A stretch of 64,000 nt of DNA from Chloroflexota bacterium (GTDB lineage: Bacteria; Chloroflexota; Anaerolineae; Anaerolineales; UBA11858): contig JABGRQ010000199.1 of assembly GCA_018648225.1 (NCBI GenBank), positions 6,606-70,605 of the forward strand, read 5' to 3'. The stretch's first letter is position 1, and every line of letters begins with the position of its first letter. Under the pieces are notes generated by a model. That model saw nothing but the letters and a program-made list of their open reading frames with translations. It did not search any database and was not told where the DNA came from. Both the position numbers and the translations under genes were made by a program. This document shows positions 555-55,472 of the stretch, piece by piece.

Positions 555-617
555 CCACGAAGACACAAAGGCACGAAGAAAAAGCAAATATTTCTTTGTG
601 TCTTCGTGTCTTTGTGG
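555..617. repeat. R-family composite hairpin (CAC[G/A]AAG units), copy 1
   Basis: CCACGAAGACACAAAGGCACGAAG - 15 nt A/T-rich loop - CTTTGTGTCTTCGTGTCTTTGTGG. Confidence 0.9.
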
Positions 618-623
618 TGAAAA

Positions 624-1022
624 CTATCGAATTACTCTCCTGATCCCTTTTTTGATGAGTGGAACATTGAAATTGATCAAAAATCCCAAACGTTTTTCTG
701 TAAGCTTAAGATAGGTCAATAATTGAGCCGTATGAACAGGGGCAATAGACGCAACCGACTTCAACTCACAAATGACCAAATTTTCGACCAGCACATCAAT
801 ACGAAAACCTTCATCAAACTTGATGCTGTCAAATACAATCGGCACAACCACTTGACGTCGTGCTTCAAAGCCCTGCTTCATCAAAACATGGCAAAAAGCG
901 GCTTCGTAAACACTCTCTAACAATCCCGGACCTAATTCGCGGTGGACTTGATAGGCAGCATCTACAACTGCAGTCGCTAGTGCTTCTTCCCGGTCTGACA
1001 ATGGAGTATATTTTGCATCCAT
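624..1022 (-). CDS. GxxExxY protein (PD-(D/E)XK-like small protein family)
   Basis: ELGPGLLESVYEAAF matches the GxxExxY signature. Start moved to the internal ATG (MDAKYTPL) because the upstream codons are hairpin-repeat sequence. The gene is visibly more AT-rich than its neighbours. Confidence 0.75.
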   Translation of the reverse strand: MDAKYTPLSDREEALATAVVDAAYQVHRELGPGLLESVYEAAFCHVLMKQGFEARRQVVVPIVFDSIKFDEGFRIDVLVENLVICELKSVASIAPVHTAQLLTYLKLTEKRLGFLINFNVPLIKKGIRRVIR

Positions 1023-1040
1023 ACCCTTACTCCTTTTTCT

Positions 1041-1107
1041 CACCACAAAAACACGAAGACACAAAAAAAGAATTTTGCAGTTCTTTGTGCCTTCGTGTCT
1101 TCGTGGT
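1041..1107. repeat. R-family composite hairpin, copy 2
   Basis: CACCACAAAAACACGAAGACACAAA - loop - CTTTGTGCCTTCGTGTCTTCGTGGT. Confidence 0.9.
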
Positions 1108-1112
1108 TATAT

Positions 1113-2549: not shown

Positions 2550-2557
2550 AATGCTAT

Positions 2558-2624: not shown

Positions 2625-3475
2625 CATTTCTTTCTATATACAATCTGATAACCCGTAGGAGCCAAGCTGATGGCTTCGTGGGGCGAGCGCACATGTCCGG
2701 GGCCAATGACCGGCTGCATAATACGCGCAAGAATACGCACACCCATCAGCAGCGCGCGCCCGACATATTGCCGCCAGCCGCGCATTTTGCGCAAAATCGG
2801 CCATTGGATATTGCGAATGCCCTCCCCCAGAAAAAACATGGGATCATAGAAACCTTCCAGCACGGAAACTTCAAGGCCGTGGTCGGTGGCCATTTGCTCG
2901 AGGGCAAAATGCGTGTAACGCACAAAATCGAGCGGAATCTGGTGCATCTTAACCATGAAGGGAATCGCCACGAGTAGCTTACCGCCGGGTTTGAGCAGTT
3001 GCGAAAGCGCGGCAAATAATTCTTTCGAATCGTAAACATGCTCCAACACGTTGAGCAGCAAAATCACATCCACGCTACCGGACTTGAAGGGGTTGGTACG
3101 CGTCAGATCGCAAACCATGTCAATCTCCGGGTAAGGGTAGACATCCAGCGCCAGGGCGTTGCGTCCTTTCAGACCATCGAAAAAATCGCCGCGGCCCGCG
3201 CCGACATCCAAAATCAGCGCATCGGGGGGAATTTCTTCGAGTTGCCGCGCCAGAAAACGCCAATTCTCTTGCCGCCAGGGGGTACCCAGCTCGGGGGAAC
3301 GCTCTTGCTTCTCGGAGGGGTTGATATTCTCCGGGGCAGGGGTAAACATCGGGGTGCCGCCCACCACCGGGGTCGTCTGCCCGCAGGCTGCGCATACCAA
3401 CCGCGCATCCCCATCGGGCTGGAAACTACCCCCGCAGTCGGGGCACAACACAATATCCAACAAACTTAATTTCAT
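2624..3475 (-). CDS. class I SAM-dependent methyltransferase with N-terminal zinc-ribbon
   Basis: CPDCGG...CAACG ribbon, then ILDVGAGRGDF (motif I) and VDVILLLNVLEHV. Start set at ATG 3475 (MKLSLLD), downstream of repeat R3. Confidence 0.8.
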   Translation of the reverse strand: MKLSLLDIVLCPDCGGSFQPDGDARLVCAACGQTTPVVGGTPMFTPAPENINPSEKQERSPELGTPWRQENWRFLARQLEEIPPDALILDVGAGRGDFFDGLKGRNALALDVYPYPEIDMVCDLTRTNPFKSGSVDVILLLNVLEHVYDSKELFAALSQLLKPGGKLLVAIPFMVKMHQIPLDFVRYTHFALEQMATDHGLEVSVLEGFYDPMFFLGEGIRNIQWPILRKMRGWRQYVGRALLMGVRILARIMQPVIGPGHVRSPHEAISLAPTGYQIVYRKK

Positions 3476-3484
3476 ATTTTTTTT

Positions 3485-3540
3485 ACCACGAAGACACAAA
3501 GACTCTAAGTTTCTTTCTTTGTGTCTTCGTGCCTTTGTGG
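3485..3540. repeat. R-family composite hairpin, copy 3
   Basis: CACGAAGACACAAAG pairs perfectly with CTTTGTGTCTTCGTG (15 bp), with an extra CCTTTGTGG unit. Confidence 0.9.
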
Positions 3541-3548
3541 TTTCGTTT

Positions 3549-4505
3549 TTATCGATGTAAAAATTCAAAGAGCCGATGATAAATCCAATACAGGATGTCT
3601 TCGGCGAGCTGCCATTTCAAAATCCACGGGCGGTTGCGCTGACGTTCATCGAGGCTGGTCGTTGGTATGCCCTGAGCGAATTCTGCCTCCGAGAGCCGAT
3701 TGCCCAAATGCTGCACCCACCACTCTGGCGTAGACAGGCGCAAATAGCCCTGATCGTTGATCGCCACATCCAGCAGACGCACTTGCCCCATCGGGCGCTT
3801 GTTGGGGATTGGCAAAACGCTGCGCAAGGCCGCCGCAGGAGCGACAAACTGAAAATGACTCGCCCCAACGTAATAGCGCTGGTCTTCATACGTCAGCCGC
3901 AAATCTGTAACTGAGTCGAAATGGGCACGGGCTTTTTCTTCGCTGGCCCCCAAACTGCGCGAATGCCGAAAATAATCTTCCCAGGGGAGGAATTTTCCCT
4001 GCTCAATCTGAACGCCATTTTTCTCGGCCCAGGCCACAGTGCTGGTGGCATATTCCGGCGGACTCCACATGGGCATACCGGTGACCATGCCGATCTCTGG
4101 GAACATATCAAGTACTTTAACCTGCGCCGAAAGCCAGCCGGGATAATAGTACACATCGCTGTCGGCGTAGGCAATAATTTCGCCGGGGGCCGCGCCAAAA
4201 ATAGCGTTCCAGGCCCCTGCTTTGCCGACGTTTTTTTCGGAAAGCAGCAGATATTGAATGCGCCCTGTGGCCTGCATTTCGAGCAGATATTGGCGCACTT
4301 CCGGGCAACTGGCGTTGTCAAAAACCATCAAATCATATTCCATCTGCGTATGTTGCCACAGGCTGTTGAAACACAGCTTGAGAATATCGATGCTTTGGGC
4401 GAAGTAACCGCTCGTCACCGGGATATAAGTCACGGTCGCAACGGTCACACGCGCCGGTTTAGGGCTTTCTTCAACAAATTTTGCGGGGTTTTGTCCGATA
4501 CGCAA
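3549..4505 (-). CDS. family 2 glycosyltransferase (paralog 1 of 3)
   Basis: TVATVTYIP...LMVFDNASCPE...AYADSDVYYYPGW (DxD). TTG start with GGAG 9 nt upstream. The N-terminus (M)RIGQNPAK aligns with the ATG starts of the paralogs at 7676 and 8698. Confidence 0.8.
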   Translation of the reverse strand: MRIGQNPAKFVEESPKPARVTVATVTYIPVTSGYFAQSIDILKLCFNSLWQHTQMEYDLMVFDNASCPEVRQYLLEMQATGRIQYLLLSEKNVGKAGAWNAIFGAAPGEIIAYADSDVYYYPGWLSAQVKVLDMFPEIGMVTGMPMWSPPEYATSTVAWAEKNGVQIEQGKFLPWEDYFRHSRSLGASEEKARAHFDSVTDLRLTYEDQRYYVGASHFQFVAPAAALRSVLPIPNKRPMGQVRLLDVAINDQGYLRLSTPEWWVQHLGNRLSEAEFAQGIPTTSLDERQRNRPWILKWQLAEDILYWIYHRLFEFLHR

Positions 4506-4524
4506 GGGGTAAAACTCCTGATTT

Positions 4525-4603
4525 CACCACAAAGGCACAGAGAGCACAGAGCGTCTTTGTGTTTTACTGATTCAACTCTGTGAACTTCGTGTCTCTGTGG
4601 TTG
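4525..4603. repeat. R-family composite hairpin, copy 4 (CACAGAG variant); right arm lies inside the upstream CDS
   Basis: CACCACAAAGGCACAGAGAGCACAGAG - loop - CTCTGTGAACTTCGTGTCTCTGTGGTTG. The stop codon of the 4564-6636 CDS falls in the loop. Confidence 0.85.
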
Positions 4604-6636
4604 TTTTTTGCTAATTGATCTAATAAAAGCGCGACAGCCATCCAACCAGCCAGGCGAAACTGGATTCCAACCGGGGCGGCGTGACGCTCGATTTCAATAG
4701 GGTTGCCATGCCAGACGATGAACATCAGCGGGTATAAGCTCACCAAAAATACCGCCACAACCAGCCAGGCCGGGGAAAGGTTTCTTTTGCTGAAAAAATA
4801 GGCTCCCGCTCCAACACTCATCAGGAAAAAAAAGCCCCACATCACCCAGGCATCGCGTGGGTAAAAACGCGCCGTGAGGGTTTGCAGCCAAAGTGGAATG
4901 GTCGGCACGCCAAAACGCGGCAGATGGTATTCCAGATTGTCGCCGCTCAAAATTGAGGGAAGTTGCTGTAAAGGGGCGATCATCGAATCCAATGGATGGG
5001 TGATGAGGAATTTGGCATAGGTGGCGACACCATACTGGTTGATCCAGTTCATCGCGGCAGCCATTTGGGGATCATTCAACAGGTAGGGTTGATACTCGTG
5101 CCCGGGCATGGCACTCATCTTCAAGAGATTCTCGCTCATCGGCAACCCAGCAGCGATGAAATAATCCACTGCTTTGGCATCAGGCAAAATACGCAGGGCC
5201 AGCAAATCGGCCATGTGAATTTGCCACAGGTCACTGGCCCCAAAGGATACATTTTTAAGTACAAGCACGCCGAAAAAGAGCAAGAGATAGACCCAATAGA
5301 ATTTGCGATTCTGCCGAGGCACTTTGCCAAAAAGCCCGGCAATCGGGAACAAGAGCGCGCCGAAAACGGCAAAATATTGATTGCTCTCACGCGTGAAGCT
5401 ATACAAAATCGTCAGTAGCGCGGCCAGAAATACAAAAGCCACGCCTGCCTGGGGGGGTAACGGTTTCTTGGTAGCGGCGTTCCACCATAACCAGGCAGCA
5501 ATCAGCAAGGCGAAGATCGAAAAAGAGAGCGACTCGGAGAGTAGAAGACTCTCCCACAGGCTGACCTCCAAATTCAAGCTAAAGAACAGAATTATCCCAA
5601 AGGCCAGCGGACGGAGCCACGATTGACGCATTAGCAATGAAAAGACCAGGCCTAATGCCGCCCAAGAGAGAATTGAAAACCAGTATTGCGCATCCACGGT
5701 GTCGCGGATGACATTGGCATCCAGATAATTTGCCTGCGTCACGCCGGTAAGTTTGTAGAAAAGCGGCAGTGTGAAGGGGCGCGTTCCGGCCCAGAATTCG
5801 AGCGAGTTGAGCGGCTCGTCGGCGGTTTCGACATACCAGGCGGTATCCCGAAAAACGCGCTCCCCGCTGAATGTTGTATAGCTTAGTTTTTGGAAAGTAA
5901 AAACAGCGAAGATGGCAAGATAGAGTATGACCAACAGCGCCTTGACGGCGGCGGGATGCAGCCAACGCGTCTCAACGATGAATGCGAAGATAAATATTAG
6001 CACCCACAGCGCCAGGAAATAGAATCCCTTGACAAGCAGAATCCAACCCGAGGCCGCGTCCGTTTGTCCCAACACAATATCGGTGGTCACGCTCTGGGGA
6101 GCGGATAAATCAATCTCGGTCGGTTCTCCATCCCACAGCAGTGACAATTTCCCCGCGTCCACATTATGGCGCACGCTCAACACCACGCCGCCCGGCATCA
6201 TCCCGGAGAGATGCCAATCATCCGTAAGCTGGAACACATCCAGCGAGACGGGCGTACCATCCAGATATTTCACCTGACGAATTTCGACCGGGCCGCCGAA
6301 TGCAGTCATTTGCAGGCTGTGCTGCGCCGAAAGCGCGGGAATGGGCAGCGGGAAGAGACAGAGTAGCAGGACGGCAATCAAACCGCAGATGAACGCAGAT
6401 ACACGCAGATTTTTAAAACAGGTTGGGGTACCCCATTTCGTCCAAATAATAAATCCAAGAAAAATAAACGGCAACAGGATGGCGCTTTTAAGCAGGCCGC
6501 GCGGCGCGAAGTAACCGTATTCGTTGCCGAAGAATAGCGCACTGATCGTCAGCCAAACCGCTACCGAGAGCAGCAAATTAAGCCCCCAGACAGCCAATGA
6601 TTTCCTGGTCAAAGGTTCCCGATTATTAAACACCAA
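4564..6636 (-). CDS. polytopic membrane protein, GT-C-like (PMT_2/ArnT-like) putative glycosyltransferase
   Basis: 690 aa with many hydrophobic segments. Loop motif VETADEPLNSLEFWAGTRPFTLPLFYKL resembles the acidic loop plus (R/H)PPLY box of GT39/GT83-type enzymes. Start is TTG 6636 or GTG 6633. Confidence 0.5.
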   Translation of the reverse strand: MVFNNREPLTRKSLAVWGLNLLLSVAVWLTISALFFGNEYGYFAPRGLLKSAILLPFIFLGFIIWTKWGTPTCFKNLRVSAFICGLIAVLLLCLFPLPIPALSAQHSLQMTAFGGPVEIRQVKYLDGTPVSLDVFQLTDDWHLSGMMPGGVVLSVRHNVDAGKLSLLWDGEPTEIDLSAPQSVTTDIVLGQTDAASGWILLVKGFYFLALWVLIFIFAFIVETRWLHPAAVKALLVILYLAIFAVFTFQKLSYTTFSGERVFRDTAWYVETADEPLNSLEFWAGTRPFTLPLFYKLTGVTQANYLDANVIRDTVDAQYWFSILSWAALGLVFSLLMRQSWLRPLAFGIILFFSLNLEVSLWESLLLSESLSFSIFALLIAAWLWWNAATKKPLPPQAGVAFVFLAALLTILYSFTRESNQYFAVFGALLFPIAGLFGKVPRQNRKFYWVYLLLFFGVLVLKNVSFGASDLWQIHMADLLALRILPDAKAVDYFIAAGLPMSENLLKMSAMPGHEYQPYLLNDPQMAAAMNWINQYGVATYAKFLITHPLDSMIAPLQQLPSILSGDNLEYHLPRFGVPTIPLWLQTLTARFYPRDAWVMWGFFFLMSVGAGAYFFSKRNLSPAWLVVAVFLVSLYPLMFIVWHGNPIEIERHAAPVGIQFRLAGWMAVALLLDQLAKNNHRDTKFTELNQ
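6383..6414. repeat. U-family repeat arm embedded in frame in a CDS
   Basis: CCGCAGATGAACGCAGATACACGCAGATTTTT (three CGCAGAT units) encodes FKNLRVSAFICG. Confidence 0.7.
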
Positions 6637-7689: not shown

Positions 7690-7755
7690 AAATTGGTTCA
7701 ATCTGAATATAAGTTGGGATGTATTCATACCGGCGGGAGAGAATTGAACCAATTT
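7690..7755. repeat. W-family inverted repeat, copy 2
   Basis: AAATTGGTTCAATCTGAAT ... GAATTGAACCAATTT. Confidence 0.8.
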
Positions 7756-8710: not shown

Positions 8711-8774
8711 ACCGCAGATGCACGCCGATAAACGCAGATAAAAAACATCCGCGTGCATCTGCGTTCATCAGTGG
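8711..8774. repeat. U-family composite hairpin (CGCAGAT units), copy 1
   Basis: ACCGCAGATGCACGCCGATAAACGCAGAT AAAAAAC ATCCGCGTGCATCTGCGTTCATCAGTGG. Confidence 0.85.
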
Positions 8775-8775
8775 T

Positions 8776-9688: not shown

Positions 9689-9721
9689 AGGTTACAGGCA
9701 CTTTATATATGCCTGTAACCT
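9689..9721. repeat. 11-bp stem hairpin
   Basis: AGGTTACAGGC - ACTTTATATAT - GCCTGTAACCT. The CCTGTAACCT unit also occurs in S-family copy 26981-27050. Confidence 0.7.
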
Positions 9722-12779: not shown

Positions 12780-12850
12780 CACCACAAAGACACAAAGGCA
12801 CGAAGGAGATAAATAACATCTCCTTTCTTTGAGTCTTCGAGCCTTGGTGG
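12780..12850. repeat. R-family composite hairpin, copy 5
   Basis: CACCACAAAGACACAAAGGCACGAAGGAGAT AAATAAC ATCTCCTTTCTTTGAGTCTTCGAGCCTTGGTGG. Confidence 0.9.
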
Positions 12851-12893
12851 TTCATTTCATGGCGCATTATCAGAAAGTATCCTTGGGGAAACC

Positions 12894-15766: not shown

Positions 15767-15815
15767 GGTTGAATGTTGAAAGTTGAAGGCTACAAACAAC
15801 CTTCAACTTTCAACC
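15767..15815. repeat. S-family composite hairpin (GTTGAAG units), copy 1
   Basis: GGTTGAATGTTGAAAGTTGAAGGC TACAAAC AACCTTCAACTTTCAACC. Confidence 0.85.
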
Positions 15816-15821
15816 TATAAC

Positions 15822-17285: not shown

Positions 17286-19060
17286 GATGCTTCCTCCATA
17301 CGCTCAGATGTTGGGATTTCAAGGGGTAACAGCACCGTAAACACAGCGCCCTCTCCCTCTTTGCTAACTAAACGCACTTCACCACCCATCAAGGTCACAA
17401 GTTGTTTAACGATGGCCAATCCCAGCCCAACGCCATCTTGCTCTCTGGTAATCGAATAATTCGCTTGCCGAAATGCATCAAACAAGTGTACTTGCACCGG
17501 CTCAGGAATGCCAATGCCGGTATCAGCAACTTCCATTGCCCAATGCGTATCATCCGGACAAAAAGCACGAACTTTTACACTGCCCTGATCGGTGAATTTA
17601 ATGGCATTATCAACCAGATTCGCCAAAATTTGATATAGCCTAGTCGCATCACCACACAGCATGGGAGGAATATCAGGCGCTATCTCTATGGAAAACACCA
17701 AACTTTTCTCTTGAAAGGCAGCCGCAAAATTTTCCTGTATCTGTTTTATCAAGTCAGCTACCTGATAAGCATTCATCGCCAAACTAAATTGACCACTTTC
17801 CAAACGCGTCAAATCCAATAGATCATTAACAAGGCTGGTCAGATAATTCGTTCGGCCAATAATGCGCCGTAAAACCTCGCCCTGTTGCTCAGTTACCGAG
17901 CCATAGACCCCATACTCCATCATTTCCACCAGCCCTAAAATGCCCCCAATCGGGGTGCGCAACTCGTGCCCAACTTTAGCCAGAAACTCTGTGCGTACCT
18001 GAGCCATCGCCAACGCTTCTTCAGCCAGCTTGTCACGGGTAATATCGCTCAACATCACCAGGCGTCCGGTAATTTTGCCCGTCTGCGTATGAATTGGCGA
18101 AATTTGCACTTTGAGATATTGCCGAGCATCACCCACAGGGACAGAAATCTCTTCGGTAATTTCAAAAACGCCCGCAAATTGCGCCAGGATTTCAGGCCAC
18201 CGGCCAAACACCTGATCGGCTGTCAAACCGTTGATACTGCTACCTTCACTATTGATCATCACTAAAGCAGCCGGGTTCGCATCCACCACACGATCATGCT
18301 GATCGAGGACAAACATGGCTATGCTCATATTATCCACAACCAACGAACGCGCCACCGGCACCATATCAAACAACCGGAACCGGAAGATCCCCCACCCCAG
18401 GATGATGGCGCTGCCGGTGAAAGCAAACGGCCCTAAATCAAGCTGTGGAACCGGGCTGATTCGAGCAATATAAAGCGCGTTCCCCACCCAGGGGAGAATC
18501 GGGCTGAGGATCAACAAAACCAATTGCCAGCGATAAGCCGCCGGAAAATTCCACAGGGCAATGATCAACGCCACAGAGCCAACAAAGAGCAGCACATAGG
18601 CGTACACGAAATATATCCACCACCCAACCCCATAAGTTGCATCCAGCATCACAAAAGGGCCATCCGTGTTGAGCGTCAACGCAGACCAGTGCCAACCGTG
18701 CCACTCATTCGTGAACGCAGAAATAACGGTGAGTACCGGAATAACACTTAAAATGGCAATCCACACGGGTTTCCACCACTGCTCGCGTCCGGAGAAACCC
18801 ATCGCAAAGAGAAACCATCCCACCGGGATATACGCGATCCCCACATACTGGAATTTCGACCACAGAATAATTGTGGTAATATCTTGCGCCCAAACTTCCA
18901 GGGCATAGAAAAGCGACCAGGTAGCCAAAGATGCCGTCACCATTGCGAAAGCGCGCGCACCTGGTAGCTCCCGGCGTTGCCATGCAAAAAATGTCATCAC
19001 CAATGCCGCAACCGCCGAGATGAACAACAATACAAAAACTAGAAGGGTTTGCCAGTTCAT
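17282..19060 (-). CDS. sensor histidine kinase with N-terminal 7TM sensor region, PAS-like domain, HisKA and HATPase domains
   Basis: H-box HELRTPIGGILG; N-box NLVDNAIKFT; DTGIGI; GVGLGL. Hydrophobic N-terminus AWQRRELPGARAF...YVGIAYIPVGW. Confidence 0.85.
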   Translation of the reverse strand: MNWQTLLVFVLLFISAVAALVMTFFAWQRRELPGARAFAMVTASLATWSLFYALEVWAQDITTIILWSKFQYVGIAYIPVGWFLFAMGFSGREQWWKPVWIAILSVIPVLTVISAFTNEWHGWHWSALTLNTDGPFVMLDATYGVGWWIYFVYAYVLLFVGSVALIIALWNFPAAYRWQLVLLILSPILPWVGNALYIARISPVPQLDLGPFAFTGSAIILGWGIFRFRLFDMVPVARSLVVDNMSIAMFVLDQHDRVVDANPAALVMINSEGSSINGLTADQVFGRWPEILAQFAGVFEITEEISVPVGDARQYLKVQISPIHTQTGKITGRLVMLSDITRDKLAEEALAMAQVRTEFLAKVGHELRTPIGGILGLVEMMEYGVYGSVTEQQGEVLRRIIGRTNYLTSLVNDLLDLTRLESGQFSLAMNAYQVADLIKQIQENFAAAFQEKSLVFSIEIAPDIPPMLCGDATRLYQILANLVDNAIKFTDQGSVKVRAFCPDDTHWAMEVADTGIGIPEPVQVHLFDAFRQANYSITREQDGVGLGLAIVKQLVTLMGGEVRLVSKEGEGAVFTVLLPLEIPTSERMEEAS

Positions 19061-21085: not shown

Positions 21086-21128
21086 CACCACAAAGACACA
21101 AAGCTTTTTTTCTTCGTGTCTTCGTGGT
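21086..21128. repeat. R-family composite hairpin, copy 6 (short)
   Basis: CACCACAAAGACACAAAG CTTTTTTT CTTCGTGTCTTCGTGGT. Confidence 0.9.
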
Positions 21129-21138
21129 AGATGTTCTT

Positions 21139-24633: not shown

Positions 24634-24646
24634 TCAAATTTCCATA

Positions 24647-24690
24647 AGGAAGCCAGGAAACCAGGAGAAAATTCCTGGCTTCGTGGTTTC
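24647..24690. repeat. X-family hairpin (CCAGGAAA units)
   Basis: AGGAAGCCAGGAAACCAGGAG AAAATT CCTGGCTTCGTGGTTTC. Confidence 0.75.
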
Positions 24691-26977: not shown

Positions 26978-26980
26978 AAG

Positions 26981-27050
26981 GGTTGAAGGTTAAAAATTGA
27001 AGGTTGAAGGTTGAAGGTATATAAAATTTTCAACCTTCAACCTGTAACCT
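26981..27050. repeat. S-family composite hairpin, copy 2
   Basis: GGTTGAAGGTTAAAAATTGAAGGTTGAAGGTTGAAGGT ATATAAAATTTT CAACCTTCAACCTGTAACCT. Confidence 0.85.
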
Positions 27051-27060
27051 TAAACTCGTA

Positions 27061-29102
<2,042 letters not shown>

Positions 29103-29197
29103 ATTTTTTTCCTTCTATTCAACAACCAGGAAACCATGTTTTTTCCTGCAATCCAGACTCCCTAACAAAGAAATTGTTTAGCTTTGAACTGAAAGAG

Positions 29198-29254
29198 GCC
29201 GAAAAAAGGGGTGTGCGTGGGGGCTGCGCCCCCACGCACACCCCTTTTTTCGGC
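29198..29254. terminator. bidirectional intrinsic-terminator-like perfect palindrome
   Basis: GCCGAAAAAAGGGGTGTGCGTGGGGGC TGC GCCCCCACGCACACCCCTTTTTTCGGC. 27-bp perfect stem, 3-nt loop, with A6/T6 tracts flanking the GC core on both strands. Confidence 0.75.
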
Positions 29255-29311
29255 ATTTTCTTTGCGAAGACATTAGCCTGAGCAGTTACCAAATACTAAC
29301 TCAATCCTGCT

Positions 29312-30971: not shown

Positions 30972-32009
30972 ATGATTAACCACATTGCACCTAATTTGCG
31001 TAAGCCACTCGCCCTGTTATTTGATATCGCCGGGATCATGCTCATCTTTGGCGTGCTGAAACTTGATTTGATTTACAACCCCGCCGGGAGTTATGGCATC
31101 GGGGCGATGCAAATCGCCGGGGTGGTGGCCGGTTTCGTGGCCGTCATTTTTAGCAGTTTCATCAACCCTCGCGAGGCGCGCTACACAAAATTCGCCAGCG
31201 CGGTTGCCTTCGGCATCAGTGTTCTTTTGCTGCTTATCAACTTCAGCGGCGTGCTGATTCCGCTGCGCAATCCAGCAGTATATGATGAAATCGAGTATGC
31301 AGGCAAACAGCGCACAGCACAATACGCCCCCCAGGAAGTTTACACCCAAATGAACCGCGACGTGGCGATTGACGAACAGTATCCCGAATATGTTAAACGC
31401 CTGACGCAGCTCATTTTCGATGGCACGGTGCATTACTGGCCGGAGAGCGGCGACCCGGCTTTCCGATTGCGCGTACCACTGCGCGAAAATTACCTGATCT
31501 TCTTCGATCAAATATTACGCGGCGAGCGCGCCAATTACGAATTCTGCCGCGCCGAACGCGCCATCGAGCGAGCAACTTCAGTATGCTCACAATCTTCCAA
31601 AATGCTGGCCGATATTCTGGGCCGCAACCGCGTTAAAGCCCATATCGTCGGGCTGGAGGGACATGTGGTAACACGCGCCCGCGTGGATAATGAAAACGAC
31701 ATTTGGTGGATTTTAGATGCCGACTACGGGGTGGTCGTGGAGCATGATATAGATGCCATCGAAGCCGATCCTGAGCGAATTCGCCCCTTCTACGCGGCCC
31801 AGGGGTATAACGATGCGGTGATTGATATTTTGGTGGGAATCTACGGCCCCGAGGGGAATCAGACGATTGACGAGAATCTACAATGCGAGGGGGAGGATCA
31901 CTATTACCTGCTCAAGTGGCTGCTCCCCGTTGTGGGGCTGATCCCGCTCCCGCTGCATATTCTGATCGCCTGGGCGCGCGGGAAAAAAGTTCATCCTGAA
32001 AAAAACTAA
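30972..32009 (+). CDS. membrane-anchored hypothetical protein with possible transglutaminase/papain-like Cys-His-Asp core
   Basis: Besides the truncated yhhQ at the window edge, the only plus-strand gene. Hydrophobic segments at the N-terminus and the extreme C-terminus. SVCSQSSKMLADILGRNRVKAHIVGLEGHVVTRARVDNENDIWWILDADYG. No obvious RBS. Confidence 0.55.
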   Translation: MINHIAPNLRKPLALLFDIAGIMLIFGVLKLDLIYNPAGSYGIGAMQIAGVVAGFVAVIFSSFINPREARYTKFASAVAFGISVLLLLINFSGVLIPLRNPAVYDEIEYAGKQRTAQYAPQEVYTQMNRDVAIDEQYPEYVKRLTQLIFDGTVHYWPESGDPAFRLRVPLRENYLIFFDQILRGERANYEFCRAERAIERATSVCSQSSKMLADILGRNRVKAHIVGLEGHVVTRARVDNENDIWWILDADYGVVVEHDIDAIEADPERIRPFYAAQGYNDAVIDILVGIYGPEGNQTIDENLQCEGEDHYYLLKWLLPVVGLIPLPLHILIAWARGKKVHPEKN

Positions 32010-32249
32010 CCACAAAGACACGAAGGCCACAGAGATTTTTTGTTTTTCTGTAATAATCAAGAATAGCTTGAACACTTTGCTTGCCGATGGCACGTCACCG
32101 CGTAGCGTGAACGGAGTGACACTTGCGCCTGCGCTAGACCCTTCGCATTCGCTCAGGGTGACGATCAAATTTTTAGACATACTGTTCAAGCTTCTGTTGA
32201 CCAATACAGATTTTTTGTTTTTCTCTGTGTTCTCCGTGTCTCTGTGGTT
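32008..32249. repeat. R-family hairpin (copy 7) split by a 158-nt insertion with 17-nt duplication
   Basis: Arms at 32008-32034 and 32223-32249. AGATTTTTTGTTTTTCT occurs at both 32033-32049 and 32208-32224. The insert has 10-bp inverted ends AGCTTGAACA / TGTTCAAGCT. Confidence 0.8.
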
Positions 32250-32259
32250 AAGTTCTATA

Positions 32260-33672
32260 TCAATCTACGATCTTATAGTCGGCGACGCGCTGTTCGAGTT
32301 CATTCCATACATCCACAGGGGGATGCCCGGCGGAAAGATTCTCGGCGATGAAGCGCCCCATATCCACGCAGTGATCGGAGTTGTTGTAGTTATACATGCC
32401 GATGCGCCCGGTTAGCAATAAATTTTCGGTTTCCTGCAACTGATTACTAACCTGCTTCATCTTCTCAACATAGGTTAGATCGTAACGGGGGTAAAAATTG
32501 CGCGTCCGCGTGACGTAATATCTGCTAACATCTTCTTCTTTTAGGAAACCGCCCTCAACCAAGCCTTCAATGGTTTTCTGGGCCAGTTCTTCGTCGCTGG
32601 CCTGCCACTGCCAGCTATCTTCGTTGCAGGTGAAATCGCAGGCTATCGCCGTACGGCCAGCGGGCCCCAGTTCGGGATTCATCTGCTTTTGTTCAAAGAT
32701 GCGGCTGAAAATATACTCGCGCTCGGGGAAGAAAATCCACTGATCTTCAAGCAAAAGATCTTTTTCGGCGAAAATATACACCAGCACCAGATGACGGAAC
32801 GCTAACTCGTCGATCGATGGCAAAACAGCAGCGTCCGAGCCAAAGAGCAAACGCCCCAGCACGGGCAGAGGAATGGATGAGACAAGATAATCGATCTCAA
32901 ATTCGGCAGGCTTACCAGCCACCGTGCCGCTCACGGCAGTGATTTTTGCGCCGTCGCGCGCCAACTCGCGCACATCGGCATTGACAATCACCTGCCCGCC
33001 GCTGGCTTCAATCATTTCCACCATCGCCTGAGGCAGATCGCCAAATCCGGCGCGCGGGTAGTAGAAGAATTCGGCGTTGGTTTCGGCAGTCTCTTTTTTG
33101 ATGCCCAACAGTTTGAGAATCACTTCGATGCCACCCGAGGCGGGGACGCGTGCCCGCGCCATCTCGGGGTGCAGGGTGTTGGGGCCGCCCCAGACTTTGT
33201 CGGCCAGGGGTTCGAAAACTAATTCGTAGGCAGGCCGCCCAAAACGCTGGATCATATATTCTTCATAGCTCTTCGGGGTTGGACTTCCTAAAATGCCACG
33301 CGCCAACTCCAGGGCGTAGCCCAGTCCCAGCCGTATAAAGGTGCCAAATCCCAGCACTTTCGCCAGATTCCCCAATTTAAGCGGGTAATCCACCAAATGT
33401 CCCCGCAGAAACAGGCGGTTCTTTTTGGGCAGGGTCAGCAGACGGTCGCCCATCAGGGTTTGGATTTCATCCAGCACGCCGGGGATGACGGAGTAAATTT
33501 TGTGCGCCCCATAGTCAAGGGTGAAACCGTCGTGCTCAAAGCTGGCACACAACCCGCCGGTTACGCGGGCCTTCTCTAAAACGGTAACTTCATATTTTCC
33601 AGTTTTGGCGAGGAAATAACCCGCCGAAAGTCCGCCGATACCGGCGCCAAGTACAACAATTTTTTCTTTCAT
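32260..33672 (-). CDS. NAD(P)/FAD-dependent oxidoreductase (amine-oxidase / UDP-galactopyranose-mutase-like fold)
   Basis: MKEKIVVLGAGIGGLSAGYFLAKTGKYEVTVLEK dinucleotide-binding motif. Confidence 0.75.
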   Translation of the reverse strand: MKEKIVVLGAGIGGLSAGYFLAKTGKYEVTVLEKARVTGGLCASFEHDGFTLDYGAHKIYSVIPGVLDEIQTLMGDRLLTLPKKNRLFLRGHLVDYPLKLGNLAKVLGFGTFIRLGLGYALELARGILGSPTPKSYEEYMIQRFGRPAYELVFEPLADKVWGGPNTLHPEMARARVPASGGIEVILKLLGIKKETAETNAEFFYYPRAGFGDLPQAMVEMIEASGGQVIVNADVRELARDGAKITAVSGTVAGKPAEFEIDYLVSSIPLPVLGRLLFGSDAAVLPSIDELAFRHLVLVYIFAEKDLLLEDQWIFFPEREYIFSRIFEQKQMNPELGPAGRTAIACDFTCNEDSWQWQASDEELAQKTIEGLVEGGFLKEEDVSRYYVTRTRNFYPRYDLTYVEKMKQVSNQLQETENLLLTGRIGMYNYNNSDHCVDMGRFIAENLSAGHPPVDVWNELEQRVADYKIVD

Positions 33673-33688
33673 AGTATCCAAATTTTTA

Positions 33689-33750
33689 ACCACAGATGAA
33701 CGCAAATGAACGCTGATTTTTTATCCGCGTTTATCGGCGTTCATCTGCGG
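33689..33750. repeat. U-family composite hairpin, copy 2
   Basis: ACCACAGATGAACGCAAATGAACGCTGAT TTTTT ATCCGCGTTTATCGGCGTTCATCTGCGG. Confidence 0.85.
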
Positions 33751-33758
33751 TTTCCTTC

Positions 33759-35711: not shown

Positions 35712-35725
35712 TTTATAAGATTCTC

Positions 35726-35806
35726 AACGCAAGGACGCAAAGGGACGCAGGCGCAGAGATTTGCTTTATTTTCCTTTGCGTCTCTGCAGCTTTGCGCCTT
35801 TGCGTT
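35726..35806. repeat. Q-family composite hairpin (CGCAAAG units), copy 1
   Basis: AACGCAAGGACGCAAAGGGACGCAGGCGCAGAG - loop - CCTTTGCGTCTCTGCAGCTTTGCGCCTTTGCGTT. Confidence 0.85.
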
Positions 35807-35817
35807 AATTAGGCCCT

Positions 35818-37327: not shown

Positions 37328-37428
37328 AACGCAATACCCCAAAGGGCACAGGTGGCGCAAAGGTGCTAAGTCGCGAAGCGCTTTTTATTTTCTTCTTTTG
37401 CATCTTTGCTCCTTAGCGGCTTTGCGTT
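37328..37428. repeat. Q-family composite hairpin, copy 2, with conserved 22-nt box
   Basis: AACGCAATACCCCAAAGGGCAC ... GGCGCAAAGG ... GCGGCTTTGCGTT. Confidence 0.8.
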
Positions 37429-40061: not shown

Positions 40062-40119
40062 CTGCAAAGACACCAAGACTCAAAGCTATTTTTCTTGGTG
40101 TCTGTGCATCTTCGTGGTG
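40062..40119. repeat. R-family composite hairpin, copy 8 (degenerate)
   Basis: CTGCAAAGACACCAAGACTCAAAG CTATTTTT CTTGGTGTCTGTGCATCTTCGTGGTG. Confidence 0.8.
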
Positions 40120-42783: not shown

Positions 42784-42861
42784 AACCACAAAAGGTACGA
42801 AGACACAAAGGAATGCAGCTATTTACCGATGTCAACTTCGAGTTTTGGTGTCTTGATGGTG
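42784..42861. repeat. R-family composite hairpin, copy 9 (degenerate)
   Basis: AACCACAAAAGGTACGAAGACACAAAGG - loop - CTTCGAGTTTTGGTGTCTTGATGGTG. Confidence 0.8.
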
Positions 42862-45076: not shown

Positions 45077-45096
45077 GCGGCACCACAGCGAAATTT

Positions 45097-45175
45097 AACA
45101 CATAGGCGCAAGGAAACCAAGCTGCAAAGTTTCTTTTTTATTCTTTGCGTCCCTGCACCTTTGCGACTTTGCGTT
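45097..45175. repeat. Q-family composite hairpin, copy 3
   Basis: AACACATAGGCGCAAGGAAACCAAGCTGCAAAG - loop - CTTTGCGTCCCTGCACCTTTGCGACTTTGCGTT. Confidence 0.8.
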
Positions 45176-46443: not shown

Positions 46444-47376
46444 TTAACGGAGCTTGCGCCAGAGAACGAGCAGCTTTTGACGCATCTGCGGCCCAATCCA
46501 CGAAGCCAACCAGCCGAGGTAGGCGCTCCATTGGGCAGGATTTTGGCGAATGGCTTTTAGGCTATACGCACGAACGGCGGACATTTGCTCAAGCTGCCCC
46601 GCGGCAAGAATATTGTGTCCGGCGTTGCTGTACAATTTTGCCCATGCCCGACGGCGAAATTTGGGCGAGAGCACCAGATCATCATCAAGCGCTTTTTGCA
46701 AATAACGCTCAAAATCGGCAATGGCGCGCAAATCGGCTTTTGCAACTGAAGTATTTTCGGTGTGGACGCGCATCGTAGTTAGAATCTCGGGGATAGCGGC
46801 GAAGTGATAGTGCCGCGCCACGCGCCGCCACAGGTCAATATCTTCTCCCCAGCGCATGGCTTGGTCAAAGCCGCCGGTTTCGATCAGTGCGGCAGCGCGC
46901 AGCATCACGCACGAGGGCGGAATCAGCACCGACCAATCGAGCAGCATCTCTGGGTAGACATTTCCAGAAAAATTTGATGTATCTCGCTCGGCCAGCAAAT
47001 TATCGTCCATGTCCACGCGGCGAAAACTGCCATGCACCAGCCCAATTTCAGAATCTGCATCGAGGAGGGCGGCCTGTTTCTCGAGTTTATCGGGGGCAAA
47101 CAAGTCATCGGAATCGAGGAAAGCGAGATACGCCCCCTGCGCCAGCGCAATTGCCCGGTTGCGCGCCGCTGAAACCCCGCGATTCTCCTGACGAGAATAG
47201 CGAATTTGGCCCGCGTCGATCCACGGTTGAAGTACAGCCTGTGTGCCATCGGTCGAGCCGTCATCGACAATGATAATCTCAACATCGCGAAACGTCTGCG
47301 CTTGCACACTCTCGATGGCTTCGACAATATAGTCGGCGCGGTTATAGGTGGGGATAATGACGCTAACTTTGGGCAT
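46444..47376 (-). CDS. family 2 glycosyltransferase
   Basis: MPKVSVIIPTYNRADYIVEAIESVQAQTF...IIVDDGSTDGT...FLDSDDLF. Confidence 0.85.
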   Translation of the reverse strand: MPKVSVIIPTYNRADYIVEAIESVQAQTFRDVEIIIVDDGSTDGTQAVLQPWIDAGQIRYSRQENRGVSAARNRAIALAQGAYLAFLDSDDLFAPDKLEKQAALLDADSEIGLVHGSFRRVDMDDNLLAERDTSNFSGNVYPEMLLDWSVLIPPSCVMLRAAALIETGGFDQAMRWGEDIDLWRRVARHYHFAAIPEILTTMRVHTENTSVAKADLRAIADFERYLQKALDDDLVLSPKFRRRAWAKLYSNAGHNILAAGQLEQMSAVRAYSLKAIRQNPAQWSAYLGWLASWIGPQMRQKLLVLWRKLR

Positions 47377-47388
47377 GACAAGTATTTT

Positions 47389-47456
47389 CACCACCAAGAC
47401 TCAAAGACACGAAGGGAAATTGTCAAAAAAATTTATGTCTTTGTGCCTTCGTGGTG
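47389..47456. repeat. R-family composite hairpin, copy 10
   Basis: CACCACCAAGACTCAAAGACACGAAGG - loop - TGTCTTTGTGCCTTCGTGGTG. Confidence 0.9.
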
Positions 47457-47462
47457 AGATTT

Positions 47463-49489: not shown

Positions 49490-49490
49490 A

Positions 49491-50654: not shown

Positions 50655-50667
50655 CCACAGATTTTTT

Positions 50668-50729
50668 ACCACAAAGACACGAAGGCTCAAAGAAAAAATA
50701 AAATTTCGTGTCTTTGTGCCTTTGTGGTG
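50668..50729. repeat. R-family composite hairpin, copy 11
   Basis: ACCACAAAGACACGAAGGCTCAAAG AAAAAATAAAAT TTCGTGTCTTTGTGCCTTTGTGGTG. Confidence 0.9.
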
Positions 50730-50737
50730 AAGTTTTT

Positions 50738-53280: not shown

Positions 53281-53283
53281 GGG

Positions 53284-54552
53284 CTATCCGTTGGCCCCTA
53301 AATTCCAGCTGTGCTCGCACAGCACATCACCATCATTAGGGTGTGTGGGAATTTTGCCGCTGCCATAATAATCGCCATCAATCACGTCCAACGTCACGGC
53401 GCGAATTAGGCGATCGGCCTTGACGGTACCAATATCGGCCCCGAAATCGAGATAATAGCGCCCGGCCCGCAAAGGGAAACGCGGCACATGGCAAATTAAT
53501 TCACCTTTCTCCGGGAGCACAGAAAAATCCTGCGCTGTGAGATCCGTGCCCAAACGCAACATACCTTTTGTAAAGGCATCGCGAAGCCAGAGCAAAATCG
53601 TGATATTCTGAATTTCTGCTTCCGAGCGTTTGTAGTGCAACACAAAATCCACTGGCTCACCGGAGACCGCTGCATCTACCCGGTCGCCCTGGGGAGATCG
53701 CAACTCAAACCCGGTGAAACGGATCGCTCCATTCCCCTTGCGGTCGGAGCGTTCGGCAATGCTCGTGTGCCACTCCCCTTTTTCGCTGGCGTTTATTAAA
53801 TATTGCTGCACCACGCTGTCTACATCTCCATCGGCGACGGCTTGCCCACCTTCCAGCAATACAGCGCGGGTACACAAATTCTTAATCGCGCCCATATTAT
53901 GACTCACAAAAACCACCGTGCGACCACTCTCGGCGACTTCGGACATTTTTCCCAACGATTTCTTCTGGAAAGCAGCATCGCCCACGGCCAAAACTTCATC
54001 CACCAGCAAAATCTCAGGGTCCAGGTGCGCGGCAACCGCAAAGGCCAGACGTACCCCCATCCCACTGGAATATCGCTTGACCGGTGTGTCAATATAGGCT
54101 TCCACGCCGGAGAATTCCACAATTTGGTCGAATTTGCGGTCGATTTCGGATTTACGCATTCCCAAGATGGCACCGCTGAGATAAATATTTTCACGCCCGG
54201 TGAGTTCGGTATGGAAACCGGTACCGACCTCGAGCAGGGCACCCACGCGCCCGTAGAGATCAATATACCCCGCGGAGGGTTCTGTGATGCGTGAGAGCAC
54301 TTTTAAAAGCGTGCTTTTCCCGGCACCATTACGCCCAATCAGACCAATGACTTCGCCTTCAGCAATATCAAAAGAGACATCCTTCAACGCCCAAATTTCC
54401 TGCTTCCGGGTGGAAGCTGCGCCGCGCCGTAAGGGTTTGCGCGCTAAATTGACCAGATCATCTTGCAATGTGCGCGAAACCGCTCCGCCGGTGGTAGCGT
54501 CAATACGATAGACCTTGCTGATATTTTCAATATGAATCGCCAGTTTACTCAT
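53284..54552 (-). CDS. wzt: glycan ABC exporter ATP-binding protein with extended C-terminal domain (second Wzt)
   Basis: GRNGAGKSTLL, YSSGM, ILLVDE. The nucleotide-binding domain is close to that of 24695-26020, but the C-terminal ~170 aa are not alignable by eye. Confidence 0.85.
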   Translation of the reverse strand: MSKLAIHIENISKVYRIDATTGGAVSRTLQDDLVNLARKPLRRGAASTRKQEIWALKDVSFDIAEGEVIGLIGRNGAGKSTLLKVLSRITEPSAGYIDLYGRVGALLEVGTGFHTELTGRENIYLSGAILGMRKSEIDRKFDQIVEFSGVEAYIDTPVKRYSSGMGVRLAFAVAAHLDPEILLVDEVLAVGDAAFQKKSLGKMSEVAESGRTVVFVSHNMGAIKNLCTRAVLLEGGQAVADGDVDSVVQQYLINASEKGEWHTSIAERSDRKGNGAIRFTGFELRSPQGDRVDAAVSGEPVDFVLHYKRSEAEIQNITILLWLRDAFTKGMLRLGTDLTAQDFSVLPEKGELICHVPRFPLRAGRYYLDFGADIGTVKADRLIRAVTLDVIDGDYYGSGKIPTHPNDGDVLCEHSWNLGANG

Positions 54553-55391
54553 CAGATCACATCCGCAAAACCGCGCTCAATGCGGCGAAATACCATCGCG
54601 CCAGAGATAAAAATCAGAATACTCACCGACAGCGAAACAGCGAACGACAGCCAGGAAAACTCACCCTGCCCCAGCAACGCCCAACGAAAACCTTCGATCA
54701 CGCCCACCATCGGGTTGAGGGCGTAGAGCGCCTCCCACTGTTCTGGAACGATGCTGCTGGAATAGGCCACCGGAGAGGCATACATCCAGGCCTGCACTAA
54801 AAATGGCAGCGCGTAGATAAAATCGCGGTAGTGCACACTAAACGCCGAAATCCAGAAACTGACCCCGACCGAAATTAGCAAATTCACCAATACCAAACCG
54901 GGTAAGGCCAATAAATTCCATGTGAACGGCGTCTGATAGATCAATAATAATCCCCCCAGAGTCACCAAGCCCACAAAAAAATCGACCAGCACCGAGAAGG
55001 AACTCGCAATCGGCAGCACCAGACGCGGAAAATAAACTTTCGAAATCAACTCGCGCCCGCTGACAAGACTGCTCCCAGCGCGTTGCAACGACTGTGCAAA
55101 CAATGTCCAGGGCAATGTTCCCGCGAAGGCAAATAGCAGATAGGGCGAATCATCCGAGGGCAGTTTTGCCAAAACGCCAAAGATCACTGCGAAAATACCC
55201 GATGTTAGAATGGGCTGCAAAATCACCCAGGTTACACCCAGCGCGGTTTGTTTGTAGCGCAGTTTCACATCGCGCCAGGCTAATATCCAAAATAAATCGC
55301 GGTACGCCCACAACTCGCGCAAGCGTAACCCAGCCCACCCTTTCGTGCGTTGGATACGAATGTGGATACCACTGGCTAGTTTTTGTGTCAT
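54552..55391 (-). CDS. wzm: ABC-2 type glycan exporter permease (second Wzm)
   Basis: LWAYRDLFWILAWRDVKLRYKQTALGVTWVIL...KVYFPRLVLP. Its TGA stop shares one nucleotide with the wzt ATG (TGATG). Confidence 0.85.
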   Translation of the reverse strand: MTQKLASGIHIRIQRTKGWAGLRLRELWAYRDLFWILAWRDVKLRYKQTALGVTWVILQPILTSGIFAVIFGVLAKLPSDDSPYLLFAFAGTLPWTLFAQSLQRAGSSLVSGRELISKVYFPRLVLPIASSFSVLVDFFVGLVTLGGLLLIYQTPFTWNLLALPGLVLVNLLISVGVSFWISAFSVHYRDFIYALPFLVQAWMYASPVAYSSSIVPEQWEALYALNPMVGVIEGFRWALLGQGEFSWLSFAVSLSVSILIFISGAMVFRRIERGFADVI

Positions 55392-55413
55392 GTATGTCTC
55401 ATTCGAGTTTTTT

Positions 55414-55472
55414 CACCACAAAGGCACGAAGAAACAAAGAAAAACTCTTCGCGCCTTTGTGCCTTCGTGGTG
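55414..55472. repeat. R-family composite hairpin, copy 12
   Basis: CACCACAAAGGCACGAAGAAACAAAG AAAAACT CTTCGCGCCTTTGTGCCTTCGTGGTG. Confidence 0.9.

Follow-up and report, generated by a model that had tools for sequence, protein, structure and literature searches.

Repetitive extragenic palindromic (REP) sequences, their hairpin-forming doublets (REPINs) and the REP-associated tyrosine transposases (RAYTs) are the subject of a considerable literature (Nunvar 2010; Bertels & Rainey 2011, PMC3116915; Di Nocera 2013, PMC3733652), in which a REP is defined as a palindrome of 20–40 nt with an unpaired GTAG or CGTC tag at one end (PMC3733652). This is the closest known system to the elements reported here, namely twelve hairpins with arms of tandem octamers that lie in a 64-kb stretch of a Chloroflexota genome (contig JABGRQ010000199.1; hereafter the window, in whose coordinates all positions are given), two of which bracket a small nuclease gene of the GxxExxY family. 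The octamer hairpins work alike but are not members of the REP/REPIN-RAYT system, because they have neither the GTAG/CGTC tag nor a linked gene of the transposase family. We consider it probable that the twelve hairpins are gene-less solo copies of a selfish cassette whose full-length form carries the GxxExxY gene, and hence nuclease-linked mobile palindromes of a REP/REPIN-like kind. Both systems consist of short imperfect palindromes in many copies, located in co-directional or convergent gaps downstream of coding regions and transcribed, both include a dedicated nuclease-type gene flanked by the repeats, and both are presumed to be non-autonomous mobile DNA. They differ in that the linked protein is a PD-(D/E)XK nuclease of ∼130 aa here and an HUH Y1 transposase there, that the termini here are (A/G)CCAC...GTGG(T/C) with TTT/AA flanks in place of the tag, and that the arms here are tandem octamers with slippage, in a repeat that recurs across phyla. 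Furthermore, the GxxExxY family is very large, diverse and expected to be multi-copy per genome and horizontally mobile, whereas RAYT is single and vertically inherited.

Of the miniature inverted-repeat transposable elements (MITEs), the Correia/Neisseria miniature insertion sequence (NEMIS) and enterobacterial repetitive intergenic consensus (ERIC) elements are bounded by defined terminal inverted repeats, carry target-site duplications and are each restricted to a narrow taxon. The octamer hairpins are likewise intergenic, co-transcribed with their neighbours, able to form long RNA hairpins and polymorphic in presence and absence, and share with MITEs the feature of terminal repeats with a protein-coding partner, as the same arms occur at GxxExxY genes and at solo hairpins; they differ in their pan-phylum distribution, in the reiterated octamers of their arms and in the absence of a visible target-site duplication. 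Further comparators are the free-standing homing endonuclease genes of T4-like phages and the PD-(D/E)XK homing enzyme I-Ssp6803I. Homing endonuclease genes are also small nuclease genes wedged co-oriented between conserved genes and patchy among relatives, but they are not surrounded by reiterated inverted repeats or accompanied by abundant gene-less hairpins. Integron attC sites resemble the hairpins in being imperfect palindromes spaced along co-directional gene arrays and in acting as single strands in folded form. No R''/L''-L'/R' GTTRRRY sites were noticed in the hairpin sequences, in which no dedicated core-site search was made, no integrase domain was found among the 40 window proteins scanned against Pfam, and, in a further difference from integrons, the genes between the octamer hairpins are ordinary multi-gene operon segments. 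Finally, the intervening sequences of 23S rRNA with an S23p/four-helix-bundle open reading frame (ORF), for example in Coxiella (PMC4990558), are small selfish one-ORF cassettes with inverted repeats inside a host transcript, whose stem keeps the host RNA functional. The octamer cassettes differ from these in residing in mRNA operons instead of rRNA helices and in the family of their cargo; no four-helix-bundle gene was found in the inspected loci.

With expected counts derived from dinucleotide shuffles of the window, the motif CACRAAGRCACRAAG (≤1 mismatch) gives 29 matches against 0.03 expected, all of which fall within twelve intervals that had been listed in an earlier note on this DNA. 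A looser arm pattern, C-R-C-N-R-A-G, yields 24 arms against 0.64 expected, confined to the same twelve elements and to four CGCAAAG-type elements. The forward arm is composed of two to three CAC-R-AAG-R octamers starting (C)ACCAC, and is followed by an A/T-rich loop and a reverse arm closing GTGGT(G). Over 52 hairpins from many genomes, the loop bases number 447 T, 423 A, 258 G and 253 C, with a median loop of 23 nt. The earlier note was thus correct in recognizing twelve hairpins of one type, with arms of two to three octamers around A/T-rich loops. All twelve are located at gene ends. The note had further placed all of them in gaps between same-strand genes, but copy 7 separates convergent genes and one arm of copy 4 overlaps the end of an ORF. 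The link to a nuclease gene, the spread across phyla and the presence of several related hairpin families in the window were absent from it. The twelve copies are the following.

554–618: copy 1, CACRAAG type with three units per arm, directly 3′ of the GxxExxY stop codon; folding energy −31.1, z −8.0.
1042–1107: copy 2, 27 pairs, 5 nt past the stop codon of a 485-aa gene, with the ribosome-binding site of the GxxExxY gene downstream of it; folding energy −38.7, z −10.0.
3485–3541: copy 3, whose perfect 16-bp stem requires a one-unit shift of register.
4526–4601: copy 4, CACAGAG variant, the 5′ arm of which codes for the final ∼12 codons (4564–4601) of the 690-aa ORF 4564–6636, with the stop codon in the loop; z −3.8.
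12781–12851: copy 5; z −5.8.
21086–21129: copy 6, two units per arm and an 8-nt loop; z −8.9.
32007–32250: copy 7, composite, with outer CAC(A/G)(A/G)AG arms around a nested element, between the convergent genes 30972–32009 (plus strand) and 32260–33705 (minus strand).
40063–40119: copy 8, with its stem at 40063–40108 and an unpaired outer unit extending to 40119; z −4.2.
42785–42860: copy 9, decayed, folding no better than shuffles; z −0.38.
47388–47457: copy 10, spanned by an RNA contig; z −5.7.
50668–50728: copy 11, at the NeuB/NeuC junction, 9 nt past the NeuB stop codon and 22 nt ahead of the NeuC start.
55413–55473: copy 12, in the 5′ untranslated region (UTR) of the wzm/wzt operon, starting ∼40 nt downstream of a promoter −10 box and ending 21 nt ahead of the start codon; z −8.8.

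In sense-strand (minus) RNA, ten of the eleven short copies fold with −22 to −39 kcal/mol (z −3.8 to −10.0), an energy equalled by no shuffle. Folding of both strands, as had been proposed in the earlier note, extends this result to DNA, in that both strands of all three copies tried fold well as single-stranded DNA. The same note had stated that copy 3 forms a perfect stem only in a shifted register, and this holds, with a stem of 16 bp. Register shifts are also a general property of the family. When the arms of the 52 hairpins are anchored at their outer ends, the variable R positions form 97 Watson–Crick pairs against 98 expected, and they pair significantly once 8-nt register shifts are permitted, which is what would be left by slippage that adds and removes units. 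Because covariation appears with these shifts, an initial view that the arms are wholly unpaired was abandoned. A search of Rfam 15 gave no match at the gathering score, and only chance matches to microRNA hairpins at E ≤ 1; a tRNA and tmRNA search found neither. A tandem-unit hairpin detector gave too much noise at a 7-nt period where the DNA is rich in A+T or G+C, and contributes to none of the counts given here. As a side observation on annotation, the gene-caller start of the gene at 46444–47394 falls within an arm of copy 10.

The gene between copies 2 and 1 is as follows.

624–1022, minus strand: GxxExxY/PDDEXK_3 gene for a small nuclease of 132 aa, with copy 2 on one side and copy 1 on the other.

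Its product matches Pfam PF13366 (E-value 8e-39; 133 bits against a cut-off of 22), which is the same family as NCBIfam TIGR04256, and the residues D76, E86 and K88, which constitute a D...ExK catalytic core, are invariant in 40 homologues. The AlphaFold model (mean predicted local distance difference test score 93.8) adopts a PD-(D/E)XK fold, the nearest Protein Data Bank entries being Cas4 SSO0001 and lambda exonuclease, followed by the DrdV nuclease domain and tRNA-splicing endonucleases. These matches are at the generic level of the fold (best E-value 0.013), and assign no specific function. A library of defence and phage proteins returned a weak match to Cas4 only, and PHROGs returned nothing. 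The nearest homologues, ∼70% identical, are found in Chloroflexota, Planctomycetota and Poribacteria, within a family that comprises 26 806 clusters at 50% identity and >8000 clusters at 90% identity. Approximately one-seventh of the best 150 representatives are tandem two-domain GxxExxY proteins of 240–295 aa (e.g. P0122, P0123 and P0125), which suggests that the single-domain form may work as a dimer and would fit with a dimer acting on a symmetric substrate. Taken with its modelled fold, the protein looks like an active, dimeric nuclease. A published survey describes the function of the family as unknown and reports multiple transfers between Bacteria and Archaea (PMC3424549). The window protein itself is seen in one genomic context only, in strains that are 99.99–100% identical.

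The association of this gene with the arms is not peculiar to the window. Among loci selected by the motif and searched with a GxxExxY hidden Markov model of our own, all eight GxxExxY genes are flanked by tandem-unit arms or hairpins, the typical layout being a forward arm immediately before the start and a reverse arm immediately past the stop. A second sample of nine loci was selected by the protein, without reference to the motif, and comprises two viral contigs, contigs of Chloroflexota, Planctomycetales and Poribacteria, and replicons of Sphingomonas, Bacteroides finegoldii, Bernardetia and Gemmatirosa (L180, L181, L188, L191, L194 and L197–L200). In this sample too, tandem-unit arms or hairpins adjoin the GxxExxY gene in nine of nine cases, and neither such an arm nor a GxxExxY gene occurs in 51 control loci (275 kb). 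Overall, every one of the 18 GxxExxY genes inspected in other organisms has tandem-unit arms or hairpins next to it. The arm units seen are CACRAAG, CGCGAAG, CACAGAG, CGCAGAG, CACGGAG and CRCRGAT (the last with a 10-nt period), which conform to a template C-R-C-R-R-A-G/T, and their type follows the protein. The clade of the window protein (62–70% mutual identity, several phyla) always has CACRAAG arms, a Bacteroidota clade has C(A/T)CAGAG arms, and in a Flavobacterium contig (L031), the only one seen with two GxxExxY copies, both clades are represented by a single gene accompanied by the arms proper to its clade. Arms and gene are inherited together as a cassette that has spread over many phyla.

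The cassettes occupy a characteristic position. Sixteen of 18 GxxExxY genes are co-oriented with both neighbours (the ORF calls being partly crude), and they are wedged in tight gaps of conserved operons such as fabD/fabG, gmk-rpoZ/coaBC and that at radA; given this co-oriented position inside operons, the genes appear dependent on host read-through transcription. Among the inspected loci, GxxExxY is the only cargo gene between arms. Small phage ORFs that lie between arms were considered as cargo and are probably ordinary genes between two hairpins, and RAYT-like genes were rejected as cargo, as the copies in L087 and L098 have unrelated inverted repeats of their own. The latter are IS200-/RAYT-like genes with HxH motifs and long inverted repeats (L098, Planctomycetales, 561–1074, minus strand; L087, Cloacimonadota, 2635–3607), from which it follows that classical REP-RAYT-type systems coexist with octamer hairpins. 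The Poribacteria cassette in L194 has a hairpin of GATTGTC/GATTGTT units (900–1150) between a CACNAAG forward arm and the GxxExxY start, and a third hairpin, of GGCAAGAC units, downstream of the gene (1600–1780), so that several unit families are stacked at one cassette.

One genome per species was scanned with CCACRAAGRCACRAAGRCAC, which gave at least 120 matches, against a rough chance estimate of ∼17 for the whole collection. Among the matches listed, arms of the form (A/G)CCAC[RAAGRCAC]n...GTGG(T/C) occur in genomes labelled as >20 phyla; they are also present in a real phage. The labels among these matches include Acidobacteriota, Planctomycetota, Bacteroidota, Chloroflexota, Cyanobacteria, Desulfobacterota and Alpha-, Beta-, Gamma- and Zetaproteobacteria, as well as Ignavibacteria, Caldithrix, Kiritimatiellia, Gemmatimonas, Nitrospiria, several candidate phyla and three archaeal metagenome-assembled genomes (MAGs); the isolates among them are Desulfonema magnum, Nostoc NIES-4103, three Flavobacterium, Thiohalophilus and Endozoicomonas. 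Most of the listed matches are the same hairpin with the same termini, and by a coarse count both arms are present near the match in 41 of the 120 loci listed. The third unit of the partner arm, which the search pattern does not constrain, is again CAC-N-AAG, and six of the eight unit positions are conserved across phyla. One hairpin family is common to many phyla and specifically linked to one nuclease family. The earlier note had proposed that gene position be examined at the genome scale, and where neighbours could be called in other genomes (n = 29), 17 gaps are co-directional, 10 convergent and 2 divergent, a REP-like bias. Cassettes and solo hairpins settle just past stop codons inside operons, in the sense orientation, and are transcribed through. 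In the Desulfonema magnum chromosome (L017, 1–420), four CACAAAG/CTTCGTG hairpins are arranged head to tail in ∼400 nt, in the manner of a bacterial interspersed mosaic element (BIME) cluster.

In a viral collection, the motif is present in 74 loci (179 arms in 642 kb), nearly all of them short-loop solo hairpins, and a protein search located GxxExxY genes in two viral contigs. In one phage locus (L254), genuine structural genes (portal, protease, major head and tail) form a module in which four hairpins directly precede ribosome-binding sites. Hairpins can accordingly persist without a GxxExxY gene in cis, and phages are possible carriers of them. It is in this light that a separate origin of the two partners must be weighed, in which the hairpins spread independently, by slippage and palindrome correction or through another enzyme, and GxxExxY genes home into existing loops. 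The motif-bearing viral contigs combine many hairpins with no GxxExxY gene, the window contains no gene linked to its other unit families, and the register shifts point to slippage. Loops are also seen to receive insertions, as in copy 7 (a 158-nt element with a 17-nt duplication), in L054 and in two of the CGCAAAG-type elements, C2 and C4; ISPpu9 is reported to be inserted in REP sequences (PMC8450116). Yet the match of arm type to protein clade is seen even inside a single contig, the cassette boundary coincides exactly with the start of the arms in distant hosts, and de novo growth cannot explain one octamer in >20 phylum labels. We hold independent spread to be quite unlikely.

The rate at which hairpins come and go was examined at orthologous junctions of the window, of the relatives L127 (88% nucleotide identity) and L128 (76% nucleotide identity) and of other NeuB-locus relatives, a comparison that had been suggested in the earlier note. 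All four junctions compared differ among the window, L127 and L128. The NeuB/NeuC junction is occupied by a CACRAAG hairpin in the window, by a CACGGAT/GCGGAT-unit hairpin in L127 and by a CGCAAAG-unit hairpin in L128, whereas relatives at 54–71% protein identity have a gap of 0–30 nt and no hairpin. At AsnB/wzm, the hairpin is of the CACRAAG type in the window, is built of CGCRGAG 9-mers in L127 and L128 and is missing from L129, and all sequence from the conserved −10 box to the start codon differs. At NeuC/NeuA and NeuA/next gene, GATTAGG-unit hairpins are present in L128 only, where the stop codon of NeuA is provided by one of them; in the window, the genes at these sites overlap or are 1 nt apart. 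Hairpins are thus gained, lost and exchanged at the DNA level, much faster than the flanking genes evolve. In addition, at loose ends of DNA and RNA contigs the same arms are joined to many other flanks, which represent further copies in the samples, and similar contig depths suggest that these copies reside in the same genome. Mobile DNA of the REP/BIME or MITE kind had been offered in the earlier note as one of several roles, and the gain, loss and replacement at junctions together with the REP-like gap distribution make it the best fit.

In mechanistic terms, the arm of the family may be described as an array of two to four 8-bp modules, C-R-C-R-R-A-G plus one base, with termini (A/G)CCAC...GTGG(T/C). 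The nuclease would recognise the reiterated octamers in the hairpin, as a folded single strand or a cruciform, and would mobilise or home the cassette and its gene-less derivatives, in the manner of RAYT with REP/REPIN or of a free-standing homing endonuclease. Unit numbers would drift by slippage and so give rise to the register-shifted pairings, and the missing U-tract may be what makes the elements tolerable inside operons. In mRNA, the 20–27-bp hairpins would be passive or tolerated, with at most mild 3′-end protection or processing.

An effect on RNA could also be the reason for their presence. The hairpins would then be host-selected stem-loops that block exonucleases, undergo RNase III-type processing or influence translation of the next cistron, and the nuclease link would be secondary. 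Their position, a few nt past stop codons and 7–30 nt ahead of start codons, followed by an A-rich spacer or a Shine–Dalgarno sequence, would suit such a role, as would their being transcribed through and their location just upstream of ribosome-binding sites in phage structural operons. In eight of the twelve copies the sense strand gives the more stable fold, and it has 36 G:U pairs against 22, a weak trend, and unit variation is restricted to transitions at the R positions, which pass through G:U. Stems of 20–27 bp are long enough for a double-strand-specific RNase. REPs and Correia elements have such effects on RNA (PMC3733652). The strand asymmetry is not significant, however, and conservation of six of eight unit positions across phyla goes beyond the need of pairing. 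Moreover, relatives at 54–71% amino acid identity do without a hairpin at the same junctions, close relatives carry another family there, and the bracketing of one nuclease family is left unexplained. Selection for RNA structure is in our judgement unlikely, if far from negligible.

Several observations weigh against the nuclease-linked mobile cassette that we favour. The G:U excess and the transitions described above leave room for a role at the RNA level. Gene–arm layouts vary, from forward arm–gene–reverse arm to hairpin–gene–hairpin and, in Sphingomonas, a forward arm only. No transposition event was caught; no two window copies are identical, no consistent direct repeat surrounds the twelve copies, which have only T-rich/A-rich flanks, no excised or empty form occurs in the DNA contigs, and no empty site was seen in the population, which is clonal (99.99–100% identity). 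None of the 74 motif-bearing viral loci (642 kb) contains a GxxExxY gene, from which it follows that the nuclease may act in trans or not at all. A sequence search for solved structures found none among GxxExxY relatives. Lastly, part of the taxonomic breadth derives from MAGs, which are possibly mis-binned.

Transcription was considered with reference to assembled metatranscriptome contigs. The contigs, from independent runs, cross copies 1, 3, 4, 10, 11 and 12 and enter the GxxExxY gene; as these are assembled contigs and not reads, partial termination or processing is possible within such data. On the sense strand, a U-run follows none of the twelve stems, and each copy precedes an A-rich stretch and then the next start codon. 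The window does contain recognizable signals for initiation and termination.

29191–29260, minus strand: canonical intrinsic terminator, with an A-run, a 27-bp G+C stem and a U-run.
55521–55549, minus strand: sigma-70 promoter, TTGACA-17-(TG)CAGAAT, the best promoter match, within the end of asnB.

The promoter (55549–55521, minus strand) is conserved in L127, L128 and L129, and the whole 5′ UTR downstream of it is not. Together with the terminator at ∼29.2 kb and the plus-strand gene at 30972–32009, it contradicts the huge single polycistron envisaged in the earlier note. That note had also held that the hairpins are not classical intrinsic terminators, and here it was right: a U-tract is lacking, six copies are crossed by RNA contigs, and real terminators in this organism look different. 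The hairpins are not terminators. A terminator scan of the window showed no excess (29 sites against 27.9 expected), and left the twelve hairpins unflagged because their loops exceed the limit of the tool. That they might nonetheless be unusual terminators or attenuators that operate without a U-tract would accord with strong, G+C-containing hairpins at gene ends and with a T-run within 10 nt on the antisense strand in 5 of the 12 copies. It is very improbable, given the read-through just described, the apparent dependence on read-through of GxxExxY genes downstream of an arm, and a flank consensus across genomes, TTT-N-R/CCAC...GTGG/Y-N-AA, which is the mirror image of a terminator, in an organism that has canonical ones. 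Bidirectional intrinsic terminators of textbook form (A-run, long G+C stem and T-run) were observed at 29191–29260 and, to the left of the window, in L195 at ∼17700–17760.

A Pfam scan of its proteins identifies the window as a very large surface-polysaccharide locus, with glycosyltransferases of families GT2 and GT4, methyltransferases, two NeuB, NeuC, NeuA, two Wzm/Wzt transporters, AsnB and a radical-SAM enzyme. Its host, an uncultured marine bacterium, is clonal over many seawater metagenomes (99.99–100% identity). All twelve copies lie in this locus and none in the adjoining 10 kb to the left (L195), and the reiterated 8-bp units have fixed and free positions, as might be expected of binding-site arrays for a regulator of polysaccharide genes. 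Against this, the same arms occur beside unrelated genes in many phyla and phage, and the arms follow genes instead of lying at promoters, divergent gaps numbering 2 of 29; regulation of this kind is hardly credible. The locus carries two paralogous Wzm/Wzt export modules in addition to two NeuB genes, and part of the second wzt-like gene (24695–26020), at 25313–25816, has ∼72% DNA identity to part of the wzt region of L127, L128 and L129.

Literature searches on the family names and on the repeat sequence turned up almost nothing on the nuclease, and no account of the repeat or its nuclease link. A wider proposal is possible, namely that GxxExxY genes and C-R-C-R-R-A-G hairpins form an undescribed, pan-prokaryotic and phage-borne selfish system in which the nuclease spreads itself and hundreds of solo hairpins into gaps between operon genes; we advance it tentatively, with rather more doubt than belief. 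Reiterated CACRAAG arms are a candidate substrate for the orphan PDDEXK_3/GxxExxY family. If the wider proposal is true, it would provide a function for a family of >26 000 clusters at 50% identity and a PD-(D/E)XK counterpart of REPIN-RAYT, and thereby a second repeat–nuclease partnership beside REP-RAYT, one with another enzyme fold that crosses phylum boundaries. There are practical implications as well. Arms can supply stop codons and C-terminal codons, and starts can be mis-called in arms; contig graphs cross-link at these repeats; and intercistronic regions of operons turn over far faster than the surrounding genes.

The twelve copies are not the only hairpins in the window, as a strong hairpin is present in about half of all gaps of ≥40 nt. 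Four of these are the CGCAAAG-type elements detected by the looser arm pattern.

35725–35807: C1, CGCAAAG-unit hairpin of the C-R-C-R-R-A-G superfamily.
37335–37426: C2, CGCAAAG-unit hairpin with a nested mini-hairpin, GTGCCCTTTGGGGTAT.
45088–45172: C3, CGCAAAG-unit hairpin.
58702–58784: C4, CGCAAAG-unit hairpin with a nested mini-hairpin as in C2.

As the CACRAAG and CGCAAAG elements of the window both fit the template C-R-C-R-R-A-G/T, they belong to one superfamily. The mini-hairpin of C2 and C4, of ∼22 nt, GTGCCCTTT(G/A)GGGTAT, lies inside the reverse arm, and C1 and C3 are without it. Nesting is also seen in copy 7.

32050–32207: nested palindromic element of 158 nt in the loop of copy 7, with terminal inverted repeats of ∼30 nt.

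The core of this element is GTCACCCTGAGCG..GCGAAGGG, and on either side of the element lies one copy of an exact 17-nt direct repeat, AGATTTTTTGTTTTTCT (32033–32049 and 32208–32224), which is the duplicated loop. A related core is found in L015 and, again nested inside CACRAAG arms, in the Kiritimatiellia locus L054.

Hairpins in other gaps of the window are built from GTTGAAG, GATGAACGC, CCAGGAA and GATGAAT units, and two AAATTGGTTCAAT inverted repeats are also among the gap elements. The hairpins at 15768–15821 and 26973–27064 have arms of tandem 7-nt GTTGAAG/GGTTGAA units, and a reverse-arm remnant of this type, AACCTTCAACTTTCAACC, lies to the left of the window (L195, 11533–11580). Those at 8713–8763 and 33688–33752 consist of ∼10-nt units, CGCAGATGAA / CGCCGATAAA, with termini AACCRC...GYGGTT; their CRCRGAT unit type adjoins GxxExxY genes in L181 and L025, and occupies the NeuB/NeuC gap of L127. 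The inverted repeat AAAATTGGTTCAAT...ATTGAACCAATTTT, the arms of which have no tandem units, is present in two copies (2558–2624 and 7690–7755) located in gaps between glycosyltransferase and methyltransferase genes. Three further kinds are represented by the gap hairpins at 24640–24686, 61790–61844 and 9690–9720, among which one begins with ACCACGAAG followed by CCAGGAA units, one has GATGAAT units and one is a plain 12-bp GGTTACAGGCA stem.

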